Assembly (NCBI GenBank): GCA_046497275.1
Contig: JAWOFX010000043.1
Location: 1-6,409, forward strand
Direction of reading: 5' to 3'
DNA: 6,409 nt
Source: Promethearchaeia archaeon
GTDB lineage: Archaea > Asgardarchaeota > Lokiarchaeia > Sigyniarchaeales > SOKP01
Shown here: positions 29-6,409 of the stretch, piece after piece
Numbering within the stretch: position 1 is the first letter of the stretch
Layout: each line of letters opens with the position of its first letter
Notes under the pieces: model-generated
What the model saw: only the letters and a program-made list of their open reading frames with translations
Told to the model about the DNA's origin: nothing
Database searches by the model: none
Position numbers and translations under genes: made by a program

Positions 29-126
29 AAAATCCAGAATGATTCACAAGATATTTTCTAATTTAATGAGTCAGATATAAAAATCATAATTGTTATTATT
101 AAATAGAAAAATAATTACAGAAAATA

Positions 127-131
127 GTGAT
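127..131 (+). promoter_or_regulatory. Candidate Shine-Dalgarno motif GTGAT
   Basis: GTGAT matches the 3' part of the GGAGGTGAT consensus and sits 6 nt before ATG 138. It is short, so it could be chance. Confidence 0.4.
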
Positions 132-137
132 TTCGAA

Positions 138-722
138 ATGAGTGAAGAAAAAGAGTCATTGAGAAAATTAATAATGTTAATCTCAGAATTACGGGCTAAA
201 GATGAAGAGCGATATGAGGCACATGTGAACTTCATGAATGAAACTATTAAAATGGTCAAAGCTATCGAATCTCAAATGAATAAACACTGGGAAACAGTTA
301 TAGATTCATTAAAAGATTTGAATGAAAATATTAATACCAATTTAGATTCTTTACTGACTGGAATTAACCCTCAAGGATTGAGAGAAACTTCAAAATCCCT
401 AAGAGAAATTATGGATACCATGAATCGGTCATTATCAACGATGAATTTAGAAAAAATAATGAGTGAATTACAAACATTAAGCGGCACGGGAGTCATACCT
501 AAGGCTGCAACAGCCTCTTCAGAACAAGTTCCTGTTGGGCAGCAACCAGAAGAAATATCTCCAGAAATCAGTACTCCAGGCTTAAAAAAACCTAGTACTG
601 CTTCTTCATCTAAAGGAGCCCAAGAAGAAGGATCTGATTGGGTTGATCCTCATGAAAAAGCTAAAAAAGAGAAAGAAGAAGATGAACCACATTTATTAAA
701 ACCTTCAGATTTCTTTAAATAG
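138..722 (+). CDS. Hypothetical protein (~194 aa): N-terminal helical/coiled-coil region, P/S/T/E/K-rich disordered linker, short hydrophobic C-terminal motif (LLKPSDFFK)
   Basis: Open frame 90..722 ending in TAG 720-722. ATG at 138 (MSEEKES...) is preferred over the TTG at 90 because GTGAT (127-131) lies 6 nt upstream. Amphipathic Leu/Ile/Met periodicity over the first ~115 aa, then low-complexity sequence. No family confidently recognised. Confidence 0.8.
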   Translation: MSEEKESLRKLIMLISELRAKDEERYEAHVNFMNETIKMVKAIESQMNKHWETVIDSLKDLNENINTNLDSLLTGINPQGLRETSKSLREIMDTMNRSLSTMNLEKIMSELQTLSGTGVIPKAATASSEQVPVGQQPEEISPEISTPGLKKPSTASSSKGAQEEGSDWVDPHEKAKKEKEEDEPHLLKPSDFFK

Positions 723-760: not shown

Positions 761-849
761 TCTCAATTATAGCGTTTATATTTTCCTCCATTATACTATA
801 TAGAATATGTAGGCTAAAAATAAATCTCTACTATCCTATATTTCAAGTG

Positions 850-1713
850 ATGAGTTCAATATTGAAAAATTTGGGGGATTGGCATACACATAATTATCGA
901 TGTAATCACGCTTCTGGAAATTTAGAAGACTATATTTTTAATGCATCCAAAAAAAATTTAGGAATAATAGGACTGAGCGATCATTTTCCAGCTCATTATT
1001 CGAAATTAGATAATACTCTCCGCCTAAAACAGTTTGCCATGAAAAATAAAGAGGTAGAGGACTATATAAGAGAAGCCATAAAACTAAAGCAAAAGTATAG
1101 AAACATGATTAAAGTGAAAATTGGATTTGAAATAGGTTATTTGTATGGGAAAGAAGATAAGTATATCCATCGTTTAAGAGAATTAAATGGGAAAATTGAT
1201 TACATTATTGGAAGTGTCCATACAATTAGGCTTAATAATAAATATTGGGGGATTAAAAATGATGATCTTAAGTATTTGATCAATAAATTCGGAGCAAATT
1301 TTATTTATTCTAAATATTTTAAAATTATAGCCGCTATGCTTTTGTCTGAGAATTTTAATCTCGATATTATAGGTCACTTGGACTACATAAAAAATGGAAA
1401 TGAAAATTCAAGATTAAATGAGTTAATACTAAAAAAAATAGAAGAAATTACACCATATATTAAAGAAAAAGGCGTGGCAGTAGAAATTAATACTCAAGGT
1501 CTGAGAAATGGCTATAAAAAGTTGTATCCATGTAAAAAAGTGTTAAAATTATTATATGATAATGCTATCCCAATTGTGTTAAGTTCTGATGCGCATGATC
1601 CTTTAGATGTAGGATATGGTTTTGAGAAGGTTATAAATTTAATAAAAAAAATAGGATTTAGGTCAATCGCTAATTTAAGGAAAAGAAAGTTGGATTACAC
1701 ATATTTAAACTAA
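850..1713 (+). CDS. hisJ: Histidinol-phosphatase, PHP family (HisJ/HisK type)
   Basis: All PHP-HolPase motifs appear in order: DWHTHNYRCNHASG, GLSDHFP, IGFEI, DYIIGSVH, DIIGHLD, EINTQGLR, LSSDAH. Start is ATG 850 (or GTG 847), stop TAA 1711-1713. The family call is strong; the exact substrate is not provable from sequence. Confidence 0.88.
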   Translation: MSSILKNLGDWHTHNYRCNHASGNLEDYIFNASKKNLGIIGLSDHFPAHYSKLDNTLRLKQFAMKNKEVEDYIREAIKLKQKYRNMIKVKIGFEIGYLYGKEDKYIHRLRELNGKIDYIIGSVHTIRLNNKYWGIKNDDLKYLINKFGANFIYSKYFKIIAAMLLSENFNLDIIGHLDYIKNGNENSRLNELILKKIEEITPYIKEKGVAVEINTQGLRNGYKKLYPCKKVLKLLYDNAIPIVLSSDAHDPLDVGYGFEKVINLIKKIGFRSIANLRKRKLDYTYLN

Positions 1714-1735
1714 AAATAGTAAAACGCTAAATAAA

Positions 1736-2800
1736 TTATATTGTATCCACTATCTTCGTATCTGGAAATTCTAAAATAAAATCTTTTCCGAATGCTTGAG
1801 AAGGTGTTAAAGTTCCTATTATATCTTTCCCACTTGTGTCCAGTTTTTTTACACATTTGATCGCAGAAATTGCAGTAAGGCGATATGGTTCTATCGTCTT
1901 AAGCCATGCTTCATATGAATCTCCATCTTTATTATATACTTTTGCCCATAAATATGAGCGAGATGCTTTGCGTGTTTTCTCATTTGGCCCCTGGACATTT
2001 TTCTCGATCCAAGTACTTATTAATTTTTGTACTTGGTCCAGTTCAAATATTTTTTTTAATAATGGCTCGAGAGATCCAGTAAAATATTTGAAATAATGAG
2101 GAAGTGCCATATAAACTCGTATATTTTCAATATTTGTTGACCTATAAGCAGTGGAAATATCACCCCACGAGATAGGATAACAAAACCTTTTTTTATCCAT
2201 AAATTGAATTTGTTTTGGATTTTTGCCCAATGGTAAAGCGACTAATTTTTCATTTTGTCGGATAATTGTACCATGTGGAATATTTGTTAAAAATGTCTTC
2301 AGAGTTCCCTTGCTAAATCCACTCAGTCCTGCAATCCCTAGTTCCAACTGTGCGGCATTCGGCATTTTCTCACTTACGTATTTCGCTAAACAATCGCTCG
2401 GTACCACATCAAAACCTACACCAGAAATTATTGCTATATTTTTTTTTAAAGCTTTTTCATGGTAAGTGAAATTTTGCTCAAATACACCAATTTCACCTGT
2501 AATATCAAGATAATGTGAACTATTTTCTAAGCATGCTTTAACGAGTGGTAAGCTTGTCTTTTCAAAAGGACCAGCTGCATTAAAAATGAGGTTGAAATTT
2601 TCAATTTTCTTAAATATAGTTTTTAGATCTGATAAGTCAAAAACTTCATAATTCAAATTATTTTGTTTTGCCAAAGGGATAAGCTTATGTGGATTCCTCC
2701 CAGCAATTACAGGATTTAATCCATTTTTGAGAGCTTCTTCAATTATGAGCTTTCCAGTATAACCATAAGCTCCATATAAAAGCCAATCTCTATCTCTCAC
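1736..2800 (-). CDS. Saccharopine dehydrogenase NADP-binding-domain oxidoreductase (COG3268 / SCCPDH / Rv2953 trans-acting enoyl reductase-like)
   Basis: N-terminal Rossmann motif LLYGAYGYTG, then AGRN, NAAGPF, YLDITGE and SGVGFDVVPSD, the diagnostic series for this family. GTG start at 2800 with AGTGA upstream; TAA stop at 1736-1738. Confidence 0.85.
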   Translation of the reverse strand: MRDRDWLLYGAYGYTGKLIIEEALKNGLNPVIAGRNPHKLIPLAKQNNLNYEVFDLSDLKTIFKKIENFNLIFNAAGPFEKTSLPLVKACLENSSHYLDITGEIGVFEQNFTYHEKALKKNIAIISGVGFDVVPSDCLAKYVSEKMPNAAQLELGIAGLSGFSKGTLKTFLTNIPHGTIIRQNEKLVALPLGKNPKQIQFMDKKRFCYPISWGDISTAYRSTNIENIRVYMALPHYFKYFTGSLEPLLKKIFELDQVQKLISTWIEKNVQGPNEKTRKASRSYLWAKVYNKDGDSYEAWLKTIEPYRLTAISAIKCVKKLDTSGKDIIGTLTPSQAFGKDFILEFPDTKIVDTI

Positions 2801-2902
2801 ACTTAGATTTCACTAAAAATTTTGAATTGTTATTAGACTATTTTTAAATCCAAATTAAAAACTTAATTGTAATAATTTATGAATATAACGCTTGAAGATT
2901 TT

Positions 2903-3937
2903 TTACGTGTGATTAGGAATACGTGGATTTATTATTCTTTTGAATAAAGGAGGAATAAGTGCTATTAGCACCATACCTGCGTATCCAGTGGGTAATTGAG
3001 GTGCTTCATCAAAATGTCTGAGATTTTGATATCTTCTACCCGTTTTATAGTGATGATCAGAATGCCTTTGGAGGTTAAACAAAAACCAGTTTGTTAATCT
3101 TTTGCTCGAATTCCATGAATGATGAGGTTTCACTCTTTCATATCTCCCATTAGACTCTTTTTTTCTTAAAAGTCCATAGTGTTCGATGTAATTAATTATC
3201 TCTAACAACGAAATTGCAATAAGACTTTGCAAGGTGAAAAAAAGCAAAGCAAAAAATCCAAACAAAAATGTTATTATAACTAAAATCATAATTTCATAAA
3301 TAACATAATGAAAAACCCTATTTCTCAAGAGAATAAATTTCTTATTCTGGTTTTGAAGTCTATTCATTTCAAATTTCCAGGCTGATTTAAAGCTTCCAAA
3401 TACAGTTTGAGGCCAAAAACTATAAAAAGATTGATTTAATCTTGCAGTTGCTGGATCTTCTGGGGTAGCAACCCATCTGTGGTGACCTGTCACGTGTTCT
3501 AGACCCCAATGGATATATAAAGAGGGTAATAAAGTGAGGCGCGCTAAAAATGGTTCAAGTTTATTATTTACTCGATGCTGCATCTCATGAGCAGTATTAA
3601 TTCCCACTCCACTAGATATTCCAACAGATACCGTAAATCCAATAAATTCTATAATTGACAACCTTCCAACAGAAATAATATAAGATCCCCATATGACTAA
3701 ACTTAATGTTATAGGCATCGTTAACCAAGTAAGGATCCGAAAGGATTTTTTTTGTTCTAATATTTTTTCTTGTTTTTCAGTTGGATTTCGATAATTATAC
3801 CCTAAAACCAAATCAAGTAGAGGAACAACAATAAAAACAAATAAAGGTGTTAAAAAAGTAAAAATACCTCCCAACCAATAACCTATTATTACAGAGAACG
3901 GAACTAAATATATAAGAGAGAATGGAATTGCTCTCAT
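2903..3937 (-). CDS. alkB: Alkane 1-monooxygenase (AlkB; integral-membrane di-iron hydroxylase, fatty-acid desaturase superfamily), 344 aa
   Basis: His boxes HEMQH (H117/H121), EHVTGHH (H148/H152/H153) followed by VATPEDPATAR, NYIEHYGL, HSWNS, LFNLQRHSDHH and PQLPTGY. Several hydrophobic TM segments and the PLLD motif in TM2. ATG 3937, TAA 2903-2905. Confidence 0.95.
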   Translation of the reverse strand: MRAIPFSLIYLVPFSVIIGYWLGGIFTFLTPLFVFIVVPLLDLVLGYNYRNPTEKQEKILEQKKSFRILTWLTMPITLSLVIWGSYIISVGRLSIIEFIGFTVSVGISSGVGINTAHEMQHRVNNKLEPFLARLTLLPSLYIHWGLEHVTGHHRWVATPEDPATARLNQSFYSFWPQTVFGSFKSAWKFEMNRLQNQNKKFILLRNRVFHYVIYEIMILVIITFLFGFFALLFFTLQSLIAISLLEIINYIEHYGLLRKKESNGRYERVKPHHSWNSSKRLTNWFLFNLQRHSDHHYKTGRRYQNLRHFDEAPQLPTGYAGMVLIALIPPLFKRIINPRIPNHT

Positions 3938-3957
3938 AATTAATTCTGAGATGATAT

Positions 3958-3965
3958 TATTTAAA
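3958..3965 (-). promoter_or_regulatory. Candidate TATA box (TTTAAATA) for a possibly leaderless alkB transcript
   Basis: On the - strand TTTAAATA ends 20 nt before the alkB ATG, and no SD motif is visible in between. There is no clear purine-rich BRE and the AT-rich background weakens the call. Confidence 0.3.
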
Positions 3966-4072
3966 TTAACAAGTAGCCAAATTTATTTTAATTTGTTTGG
4001 TATATTTTAAAAATAGTATATTTAAATGAACAGAGAAATCTTATATAAAATTATACCATCTTAAAATAAATT

Positions 4073-5413
4073 TCATCCGAACATCTCCATAAAAGCTCCG
4101 AGTCTAGTTTTCACTTGCTCTACGTTTTCACCGATTTTATTAAAATTGATGACGGTTGTTGGAATTTCAAGTTTATTCCTTATTTTACGTCTTAATAATG
4201 AATAGCAATTGGAGATACTATGGCAACCAAATACTTGATTGAAAATTAAACCATCCACGTTAAGATCCTTGGCAGTTTGAATATAACTGTCTGTTAATGC
4301 TTCTTGATCGCAACCAATTCCTCGCATTGTCGCATTTAATATGAAACGAGCATAATCTTCAACGGGATTTGAATCACGTCCCACAGGAATCTCTTCTAAT
4401 AATTGCAATACCTCCCAGTCAGCATATATTGTTCGGGCTCCTAAATTATAAAGGATTTCATGAGTTTCAGGTTCCCACCCGCCGAATACAGGCGTGATCA
4501 TAACACGGGGCATCTTTGAGACATCCATCCCTATCCCCTTATCTATTCTTTGTCTCATTTCTTTAACTAAATAACTAAAATTTTCTAAATAACGCTGTGC
4601 ATTTGAGTTATAATCTTGAAAACTTAAACCTAACAACGCAAGAATTTCTGCAAAAGTTGCAGGATTGCAAGGATAAAAATCGGAGGCACTACATTCATAT
4701 AAAACAGTCTTATAATATCTTTTTATTTGATTTCCAATTCGAAACTGTTTTTTTAAACTATTATCAGTCACTAAATTTCCAGTAACTTCTTCTAAATCTG
4801 AAATGGCTTTTGAAATATTATCAGTAAGTAATTCTACAGCATTTCCATACTCTCTGGGTGGTACATCAACCCAAATCTGTTTTGGAACATATTGTTTGAG
4901 AGATTCAGAATACTTATTCCATGCTGAACATCGAATGGTAAAATTGATATTTGCATCAACATTTTGACCTTTTGAGATAAACATTCCAGTGAGCCCTGTT
5001 ATCCCATAACAAAAATCACTTGGTATTCCATTCTCAATCCCTAAATCATAAAGTTCATTATATTTCTCGTTGATGGTATGGATAACATCATCAAGCACAG
5101 TATCTAAAATTTTTAATACATCAAACTGACGAACAAAACTTAATAATTTAGTGGTTAAATCCCAACCGATTAAACTTTTCGCTGAATTTAAAGCATTTAA
5201 ATAAGCATTTACCTTAAATTTCTCCATTCGAATGGGAAACACAGGAATAGCCCCAGCAGAAAAAATTAAATCCGAAAATGGAAGCGCAACTGAAATTAAC
5301 TTTTTTCTCTCCTTAAATTTTTTCCTTTTTAGATATTCTCTCCCCGCTAAGAAATTATAGGCCAATCTGAGAACTGATTTGAAGGTTACAATATCATCAG
5401 TAAATAGGCTCAT
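4073..5413 (-). CDS. 2-hydroxyacyl-CoA dehydratase family subunit (HgdA/FldB/HadB/BcrB-like; HGD-D domain), 446 aa
   Basis: AGAIPVFP motif; three spaced Cys typical of the family's [4Fe-4S] ligands (DFC135YG, IRC162SAWNK, FGC397HS); C-terminal family signature EQVKTRLGAFMEM. ATG 5413 with a strong SD, TGA 4073-4075. Confidence 0.85.
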   Translation of the reverse strand: MSLFTDDIVTFKSVLRLAYNFLAGREYLKRKKFKERKKLISVALPFSDLIFSAGAIPVFPIRMEKFKVNAYLNALNSAKSLIGWDLTTKLLSFVRQFDVLKILDTVLDDVIHTINEKYNELYDLGIENGIPSDFCYGITGLTGMFISKGQNVDANINFTIRCSAWNKYSESLKQYVPKQIWVDVPPREYGNAVELLTDNISKAISDLEEVTGNLVTDNSLKKQFRIGNQIKRYYKTVLYECSASDFYPCNPATFAEILALLGLSFQDYNSNAQRYLENFSYLVKEMRQRIDKGIGMDVSKMPRVMITPVFGGWEPETHEILYNLGARTIYADWEVLQLLEEIPVGRDSNPVEDYARFILNATMRGIGCDQEALTDSYIQTAKDLNVDGLIFNQVFGCHSISNCYSLLRRKIRNKLEIPTTVINFNKIGENVEQVKTRLGAFMEMFG

Positions 5414-5416
5414 TTT

Positions 5417-6409
5417 CTAAATCATCTCCATAAATGCTTCAATTCTTGTAGTAAGTTGACCCCGTATTGATCTAGAATAGTCCCTTTCCAAGTTAAGAAC
5501 TTGAATCCCTCTTTCTTGTAGTTTTTCCTTAAAGGTTGACTGAACTAAGCTAAAATGATCACAGAATTTAATAATATGGTTAATTACGCCTAATTTTTTT
5601 CCATATTCTTTTTTAAAGTTATTAATATAATTTTCTAAGAAAGTAAGTTTTTCTTCGAGGGTATTAGGAACTGTATGATCACCATATATATTATTTTCAA
5701 ATCTTTTAACGAACAAATCCAAAGGATCTTGTAGTGTTTCCAAGATTTTTTCAGAAAATATTTGTGAATAATAATTATGTCCTATCCAACTATCGAAAAA
5801 GACGATGTTCCCTCCCCCCTCTTCGATCATATCAATTAAATAATCTCCAATGAAAATGGAGCATCCCGATAAAATAACAGGTTTAGCATTATTTTTTATT
5901 ATTTCATTTCTTTCCTTATTTTCTTCAATAAATTTTTCTAGCTCAGGTTGAATTTTTGGACCAAATAACATAGCTTTTTGATACATTTTCAACTTTTCTG
6001 AGCCTTTAATATCCAAATCCTTAATTTTTGAGATGGTTTTTTTAAAATTGTTATATTTGATTATACTTTTATGAATTTCTTCGTCCGGAATTTTTCCTCC
6101 TTTAATTTTTTCAAGCTCTTCTCTCAAAAGTTCTAATTCTATTTTGTAATATTTTAGAGCATTTTCATTACGAGTGTAAGACACATAAAAATTAATACGA
6201 TTAAGATTAAAGTTATCACAGATAATTTCGGATACCACTATATCTGATACACAATGGTTTGAGAGTAGGATATAATCAACGTAATCTAAGAATCTATACA
6301 TATTTGGTTTTAAGGAAAAAAATCCGATGCAACTCTGGGCAAAACTACAAGTTGATGGAGGTAAAAAATTATGACTTGCATTCATTAATGAATCATCTCC
6401 CGCGAAAAT
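5417..6409 (-). CDS. 2-hydroxyacyl-CoA dehydratase family subunit (HgdB/FldC/HadC/BcrC-like), probably 5'-partial
   Basis: Cys motifs LPPSTCSFAQS, SNHCVSD and IIKFCDH, the GCSI segment, and C-terminal LERDY...GQLTTRIEAFMEM. The frame stays open from ATG 6385 to the window edge (IFAGDDSL-MNAS...). The family's usual N-terminal ~50 aa is missing from the listed 322-aa ORF, so the true start is probably outside the window. TAG at 5417-5419. Confidence 0.88.
   Translation of the reverse strand: MFAGDDSLMNASHNFLPPSTCSFAQSCIGFFSLKPNMYRFLDYVDYILLSNHCVSDIVVSEIICDNFNLNRINFYVSYTRNENALKYYKIELELLREELEKIKGGKIPDEEIHKSIIKYNNFKKTISKIKDLDIKGSEKLKMYQKAMLFGPKIQPELEKFIEENKERNEIIKNNAKPVILSGCSIFIGDYLIDMIEEGGGNIVFFDSWIGHNYYSQIFSEKILETLQDPLDLFVKRFENNIYGDHTVPNTLEEKLTFLENYINNFKKEYGKKLGVINHIIKFCDHFSLVQSTFKEKLQERGIQVLNLERDYSRSIRGQLTTRIEAFMEMI
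5421..5429 (-). promoter_or_regulatory. Shine-Dalgarno GGAGATGAT inside the last codons of the upstream dehydratase gene (translational coupling)
   Basis: The - strand reads ATG GAG ATG ATT TAG AAA ATG. GGAGATGAT is an 8/9 match to GGAGGTGAT, 7 nt before ATG 5413, and only 3 nt separate the two genes. Confidence 0.65.

Follow-up and report, generated by a model that had tools for sequence, protein, structure and literature searches.

The window, the whole stretch of DNA analysed here (6409 bp), is the entire contig C58 of a 3.85-Mb MAG in 188 contigs (30.4% GC; completeness 98.9%, contamination 4.4%). At its centre lies alkB, predicted to encode a membrane diiron monooxygenase, with two HGD-D family genes upstream and a saccharopine-dehydrogenase-like (SacchDH-like) gene downstream on the same strand, while a PHP-domain gene and the gene 'hyp194' lie on the opposite strand (Table 1). 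The alkB frame begins with ATG and runs through 344 codons with no internal stop. The intergenic region upstream of it is probably alkB's own archaeal promoter, judging from its composition. A scan for bacterial-type promoters and terminators returned fewer matches than did shuffled sequences, its models being bacterial and not applicable to an archaeon.

Table 1. Genes and features in the window, and electron-transfer genes elsewhere in the host genome
Feature	Position	Strand	Remarks	Evidence
'hyp194', backbone gene	90..722	+	no family match; directly after HGD-D_2 where the alkB block is absent	comparison of loci
PHP-domain, HisJ-family histidinol-phosphatase-like gene	847..1713	+	third gene of the block; adjoins alkB also in G275	profile matches, synteny
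SacchDH-like NAD(P) oxidoreductase gene	1736..2800	-	downstream of alkB, in the block	profile match, synteny
alkB, membrane diiron alkane/alkyl 1-monooxygenase (predicted)	2903..3937	-	344 aa	ORF, Pfam, PDB matches, alignment, model
His box LQRHSDHH	3050-3073	-		motif
His box NYIEHYG	3173-3193	-		motif
His box EHVTGHH	3479-3499	-		motif
His box HEMQH	3575-3589	-	H117, H121	motif
Chain-length gate residue V34	3836-3838	-		alignment with FtAlkB
Intergenic region upstream of alkB	3938..4072	-	135 bp, A/T-rich, TATA-like runs	sequence read
HGD-D family subunit gene	4073..5413	-	446 aa; conserved backbone	Pfam HGD-D, 2e-36
HGD-D family subunit gene	5417..6409	-	cut by contig end (378 aa in longer assembly)	Pfam HGD-D, 3.4e-43
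Rubredoxin (47 aa)	contig C65:1827-1970	-	near the fusion	domain match
Rubredoxin (51 aa)	contig C65:3854-4009	-	adjoins the fusion	domain match
Rubredoxin reductase-rubredoxin fusion	contig C65:4014-5357	-		domain matches

Several lines of evidence place the contig in the archaeon. The same protein is also encoded on a 51.5-kb contig (L002) of another assembly, GCA_051746095.1, where alkB is flanked by genes for a tRNA-splicing endonuclease, a BcrAD_BadFG activator, a P-type ATPase, two HGD-D proteins, the SacchDH-like protein and the PHP protein. The ten-gene order of the locus is kept in two same-genus genomes (G274 and G276), and 73-91% of the stretch's words are present in DNA runs of two further samples. 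The GC content of alkB (32.5%) and its GC3 (23.3%) agree with the means of the genome's ORFs (32.1% and 23.2%, respectively), and its codon-usage distance falls at the 46th-59th percentile of these ORFs. The gene is thus compositionally native, fully adapted to its host genome and no recent import, as the first-pass annotation had supposed from its AT-rich codons. The contig is just 6.4 kb long and the nearest non-Asgard relatives are bacterial, but the independent long contig with the same genes and a tRNA-splicing endonuclease gene, the gene order repeated in two MAGs, the matching composition and the recurrence in further DNA runs exclude, for all practical purposes, that it is a chimeric assembly or a contaminant from an aerobic or facultative bacterium.

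Metatranscriptome libraries from two salt-lake studies contain contigs that match alkB at 100% identity, and the gene is covered in four libraries. These contigs extend into the upstream intergenic region (3938..4072) and, by a 31-base rule, none bridges into the HGD-D gene. Strand, level and transcript ends are not readable from such contigs, and uncovered stretches (for example, 2783-2996) are uninterpretable; the contigs are consistent with transcription of alkB, with DNA carry-over possible.

Protein family, active site and predicted fold

AlkB matched the Pfam FA_desaturase family (1.8e-31) and, over its whole length, the alkane 1-monooxygenases 8F6T (4.6e-91) and 8SBB (2e-70) in the PDB; a search of NCBIfam returned no model that matched it. 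As the hallmark of the family we took the four motifs HExxH, EHxxGHH, NYxEHYG and LQRHSDHH, which together supply nine iron ligands. All four motifs and all nine iron-binding histidines are present, and they do not vary among 34 clade members or within the canonical set. An AlphaFold (AF2) model computed from an alignment of 34 relatives (pLDDT 92.6) has the AlkB-type six-TM fold with its cytosolic cap and superimposes on 8F6T and 8SBB with TM-scores of 0.95 and 0.93, respectively (rmsd ~2 A), whereas SCD1 gave a weak match to the model (TM 0.36).

The residues that surround the substrate are also conserved. E252, L245, L286 and L289 correspond to E281, L274, L315 and L318 of FtAlkB and are kept across the clade; in FtAlkB, mutagenesis has established the importance of L274, L318 and E281 (PMC10110569). 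Chain length is set at the position occupied by W62 in FtAlkB, W55 in the GPo1 enzyme and I54 in FtAlkBG, and AlkBs with a small residue at this gate oxidise alkanes of C12 and longer, the W62V mutant having shifted to longer chains (PMC10110569, PMC10113152). This position is a valine in 29 of 31 clade members, including Val34 here. The ORF therefore most likely encodes a functional AlkB-type integral-membrane diiron monooxygenase, as predicted from its alignment and model, and the first-pass description of a full-length AlkB with every catalytic His box and no frameshift stands. The same annotation had offered a branch with a different activity, desaturase-like or lipid hydroxylase, as an alternative. 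Such a switch in chemistry is unlikely, because the catalytic, methyl-positioning and gate residues match those of characterised AlkBs; the protein's position well inside the AlkB clade, with ~41% identity to AlkBs versus 28% to XylM, also speaks against it.

The gene is already known in public MAGs, where it is annotated as 'alkane 1-monooxygenase'. Our literature searches for AlkB in Asgard archaea, in sulfate reducers or in an anaerobe subclade found no paper discussing it; the 'alkB' of Promethearchaeota mentioned in one preprint is a different gene, encoding the DNA-repair AlkB.

Gene neighbourhood and descent of alkB

The HGD-D pair is accompanied by a gene for an ATP-dependent BcrAD_BadFG activator, ~3 kb upstream of the pair in L002, a combination that places it in the superfamily of 2-hydroxyacyl-CoA dehydratases, benzoyl-CoA reductases and double-cubane proteins. 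Scores stayed below the NCBIfam equivalog cut-offs for HadBC/HgdAB (117 bits versus 350 for the best, NF040772, a double-cubane model; 55 versus 700 for HadC), and the closest PDB relative of the HGD-D protein encoded at 5417..6409 is the double-cubane cluster protein 6ENO. On these matches, the HGD-D neighbours are distant members of the superfamily, nearest to double-cubane cluster proteins.

The activator, HGD-D_1 and HGD-D_2 genes form a backbone that is conserved family-wide, and 'hyp194', encoding a protein of 194-210 aa with an acidic, Lys/Glu-rich tail, is likewise a family-wide backbone gene beside the HGD-D pair. In the same-genus genomes G277 (L133) and G273 (L136), HGD-D_2 is followed directly by 'hyp194', with no alkB-SacchDH-PHP genes between them, while in the host genome, G274 and G276 the alkB-SacchDH-PHP block (window 847-3937) sits at this spot. 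The same spot holds other DNA in G275 and G151 and so constitutes a variable hotspot. Inspection for flanking repeats or signs of mobile elements around the inserted block yielded low-complexity A/T matches only.

Outside the three same-genus genomes, alkB is not linked to the HGD-D gene at 4073..5413. It lies on another contig beside a PHP gene in G275, among unrelated genes in a Thor genome, and beside yet other genes in bacterial hosts. In G151, from another genus of the family, an intact alkB frame (L030/L042, G151:C3; frame read in L030) lies between RNA polymerase large-subunit genes (Rpb1 domains) and L7Ae/NusA-like/S12/S7, a region that ranks among the most conserved archaeal gene strings. 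Across 38 loci, the only recurring neighbours of alkB were spurious antisense ORFs inside alkB itself and generic histidine kinases.

The first-pass annotation had singled out the juxtaposition of an O2-dependent AlkB with O2-labile radical enzymes as meaningful. Because the backbone exists without alkB, alkB lies elsewhere in other lineages and no neighbour recurs, this contrast is a coincidence and not a pathway. On the evidence of gene order, alkB stands next to the HGD-D genes by an accident of the insertion (or deletion) of a three-gene block beside a conserved backbone. It follows from the same comparison that alkB, the two HGD-D subunit genes and the SacchDH-like reductase gene are very improbable as a single module for acyl-chain tailoring: the four genes do run in one direction, closely spaced, in the window, G274 and G276, with the activator gene nearby on the longer contig, but the activator/HGD-D backbone occurs with no adjoining alkB in G277, G273, G275 and G151, and the surroundings of alkB are unrelated in G275, G151, Thor and every bacterial host. 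An O2-requiring step would, moreover, be chemically awkward in one pathway with O2-labile Fe-S radical steps. The module is thus largely refuted by synteny.

The nearest relatives of AlkB come from Loki-type MAGs (66-82% identity), followed by Thor-type MAGs and many Desulfobacterota (46-62%). The latter include Desulfatibacillum alkenivorans DSM 16219, a cultured strict anaerobe, a Desulfosudis oleivorans MAG and Desulfobacterales MAGs; SAR324, an anammox bacterium and others also carry a gene of this subclade. Identity drops to 38-42% for the classical AlkBs of Acinetobacter, Marinobacter, Rhodococcus and Ralstonia, and to 28% for XylM. By length and relatedness, the subclade consists of short AlkBs (about 345-360 aa) of anaerobes, mainly Desulfobacterota with a few Loki/Thor-type Asgard archaea. 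We computed one quick and one careful maximum-likelihood tree with XylM as a distant outgroup. The 11 Asgard AlkBs fall into a single clade (UFboot 93 / SH-aLRT 96; seen in 88% of the bootstrap trees). It lies within larger, well-supported groups of 29 and 33 sequences that are mostly from Thermodesulfobacteriota, and the anaerobe AlkB clade is the sister of the clade with the classical enzymes. The archaeal clade thus sits among AlkBs of Desulfobacterota and other anaerobes, with XylM far away. Within it, the branching follows genus, family and order roughly.

The gene is rare: we found it in 11 of 400 Asgard genomes (~3%), four of the seven genomes of the window's genus among them, and in 8 of 401 evenly sampled Desulfobacterota genomes (~2%). 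Where present in the 11 Asgard genomes, it has an intact frame and every catalytic residue, even though the proteins differ from one another at up to 47% of residues. Between genus- and family-level copies, dN is 0.13-0.31 with dS saturated, giving a dN/dS of about 0.06-0.13, and by this measure alkB is under purifying selection. The simplest reading is that an ancestor of these Asgard lineages would have exchanged alkB once with Desulfobacterota-like bacteria, and that vertical descent with many losses, some relocations and continued selection would have followed. The direction of transfer is read from the nesting only, because the branch to the XylM root is very long.

Two further observations concern divergent copies. 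A divergent AlkB-like protein (35% identity) is encoded in an Asgard genome of a different family (L020; G049:C418:1344-2345); its long branch falls outside the Asgard clade, and it was probably acquired separately or represents another subfamily. The alkB match is broken in two in the bacterial MAGs L061 (Desulfosudis oleivorans) and L071, pointing to a frameshift, a pseudogene or a misassembly.

Oxygen biology and proposed function

The host genome encodes five full-length proteins that are true actins, CODH/ACS (CdhC) and a class III RNR (NrdD). Neither a haem-copper oxidase (COX1) nor a cytochrome bd oxidase was found in this 98.9%-complete genome, nor in five other AlkB-bearing Asgard genomes. 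These findings mark the host as an anaerobic Asgard archaeon of Lokiarchaeia type that lacks terminal oxidases, in keeping with the first-pass suspicion of a probable anaerobe and possible Asgard archaeon. As to oxygen defence, it encodes superoxide reductase (SOR) and three to four rubrerythrins, and a profile search for flavodiiron proteins (PF19583) gave weak metallo-beta-lactamase-like matches only, with no clear FDP. Loki and Thor archaea live mostly in deep anoxic layers (10.64898/2026.03.20.713109), which makes their O2 supply uncertain.

Electron donors of the expected kind are encoded in the genome, away from alkB. The 447-aa rubredoxin reductase-rubredoxin fusion on contig C65 joins Pyr_redox_2 and Rubredoxin_C domains (AlkT/NROR architecture) to a rubredoxin, and there are several free rubredoxins, the 51-aa one beside the fusion and two further ones. 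At none of the 38 loci is a rubredoxin, reductase or alcohol/aldehyde dehydrogenase gene linked to alkB. Nor did we find an alk catabolic operon, a cluster with rubredoxin, alcohol/aldehyde dehydrogenase and acyl-CoA synthetase, and the contexts of alkB differ among hosts. Six arginines dock rubredoxin on FtAlkBG (PMC10113152). Two of them, R148 and R169, align with P129 and T150 of the Loki protein, with P and V/T/A at these positions throughout the anaerobe clade, and hence the donor or its docking may differ from that of FtAlkBG. When AlkB was modelled in complex with a 57-aa rubredoxin encoded on contig C98, the score was 0.24 against a mark of 0.32, which decides neither for nor against a pairing. 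Separately, contig C118 encodes a 468-aa acyl-CoA dehydrogenase fused to a C-terminal rubredoxin (C118:12943-14349, minus strand; L004:1489-2895), which may represent a beta-oxidation step wired to rubredoxin.

Taken together, it is likely that AlkB is a genuine O2-dependent long-chain alkyl omega-hydroxylase that acts only when traces of O2 reach the cell, since in a cell without a terminal oxidase the enzyme is workable only with such traces. By homology, alkyl chains from about C12 upwards would partition from the membrane into the hydrophobic tunnel, past a gate that, with Val34 in place of Trp, should be of the long-chain type. The nine-His diiron centre would be reduced by rubredoxin, itself receiving electrons from the NAD(P)H-dependent rubredoxin reductase-rubredoxin fusion, and the reduced centre would then activate O2 and hydroxylate the terminal methyl group. 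In doing so the enzyme would consume trace O2 while converting an inert alkane or alkyl lipid to a fermentable alcohol. Access to alkanes or alkyl lipids, removal of O2 at the membrane, or both are candidates for its physiological role.

It is unlikely, by comparison, that the substrate of AlkB is one of the cell's own membrane lipids, whose alkyl or isoprenoid chain it would hydroxylate or desaturate, perhaps together with the SacchDH-like reductase, and not an environmental alkane. The solitary state of alkB, with no catabolic alk genes nearby, would suit this role, and many enzymes of the FA_desaturase superfamily modify lipids (PMC10110569). The SacchDH-like gene adjoins alkB in three genomes and is present in 6 of 7 AlkB-bearing versus 5 of 34 AlkB-lacking Asgard relatives, but these counts come from related genomes and are non-independent, and in three of the six the two genes are unlinked. 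Further against a tailoring role, the SacchDH-like gene is absent from all eight AlkB-bearing Desulfobacterota sampled, an alkB found in only ~3% of Asgard and ~2% of Desulfobacterota genomes can serve no core lipid, and the substrate-tunnel residues are those of alkane-oxidising AlkBs. A sequence search of the PDB returned no relative of the SacchDH-like protein (1736-2800, minus strand).

We consider it very unlikely that alkB is a silent relic, carried along uselessly in an organism that never sees O2. Its rare and patchy distribution, the lack of linked partner genes and the two-piece matches in the bacterial MAGs L061 and L071 could be read in this way. However, a relic would hardly keep its frame and all catalytic residues in 11 Asgard genomes as divergent as these, a dN/dS of ~0.1 and a fully adapted codon usage, or be matched by identical sequence in RNA libraries. 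Still less can be said for a non-O2 oxidant, or O2 made inside the cell (e.g., by NO dismutation or chlorite dismutation), in the anaerobe subclade: the hosts are anaerobic, and an intra-aerobic route of alkane oxidation has been suggested in other bacteria (PMC3604635), but the metal site does not differ from that of AlkBs that use O2. Candidate NO dismutases fall in the COX1 family, of which a search of the genome found no member, and we know of no O2-independent member of the FA_desaturase/AlkB diiron superfamily.

A further reading concerns the subclade as a whole. Sulfate reducers are syntrophic, co-living partners of Loki and Thor archaea (10.64898/2026.03.20.713109). The short AlkBs of Desulfobacterota and of Loki/Thor archaea might form an anaerobe-adapted subfamily, exchanged between syntrophic partners, working on trace O2 through a different redox-partner surface and using O2 purely as a co-substrate that opens alkanes or alkyl lipids and strips O2 from the membrane. 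This reading is speculative, and we regard it as rather doubtful. If true, it would mean that the use of O2 as a reagent precedes, or exists without, O2 respiration in Asgard archaea.

The locus matters on several counts. A strictly O2-dependent enzyme class is kept under selection in Lokiarchaeia that have no means to respire O2, which makes alkB a testable handle on whether such non-respiring Asgard archaea make any chemical use of O2. The clade shared with sulfate reducers, the usual partners of Asgard archaea, offers a clean case of gene sharing between groups. Since alkB is widely read in sediment surveys as a sign of aerobic alkane degradation, such surveys may misassign a sizeable subclade that resides in anaerobes. 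By contrast, the bearing on oxygen use in the archaeal relatives of eukaryotes that the first-pass annotation had anticipated is weak: as a rare accessory gene (11/400) in a clade shared with Desulfobacterota, alkB says little about the ancestral oxygen metabolism of the eukaryote lineage.

Comparison with known systems

The closest characterised counterparts are FtAlkB and FtAlkBG of Fontimonas thermophila (8SBB and 8F6T), with which the Loki AlkB shares 40-42% identity, the six-TM fold, the nine-His diiron site, the nearby Glu and the methyl-positioning Leu residues. It differs from them in an N-terminus ~25 residues shorter, a shorter C-terminal tail (median 7 versus 25 residues past the end of the window protein), one extra residue after His box 1, W144 in place of F and EHV in place of EHN. 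It also has no fused or adjacent rubredoxin, and two of the docking arginines are replaced. At the gate it carries Val, as in long-chain AlkBs, where FtAlkB has Trp.

AlkB of Pseudomonas putida GPo1, which belongs with the alkBFGHJKL/alkST system, is of the same enzyme family, and the Loki enzyme presumably shares its requirement for rubredoxin and rubredoxin reductase. However, the Loki alkB has no alk operon (solitary in 38 of 38 loci), and its host has no aerobic respiration. XylM and the membrane fatty-acid desaturases belong to the same histidine-box diiron superfamily (PF00487), but the Loki AlkB is only 23-28% identical to them and XylM sits on a long, separate branch.

The AlkBs of Desulfobacterota are members of the same subclade (46-62% identity) with the same short architecture, a solitary gene and anaerobic hosts. 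The hosts themselves differ in their oxygen biology: a cytochrome bd oxidase is encoded in each of the three bacterial genomes with an anaerobe-clade AlkB that we examined (G400, G401 and G402, the genomes of L064, L061 and L069, respectively), whereas the Asgard hosts examined do not.
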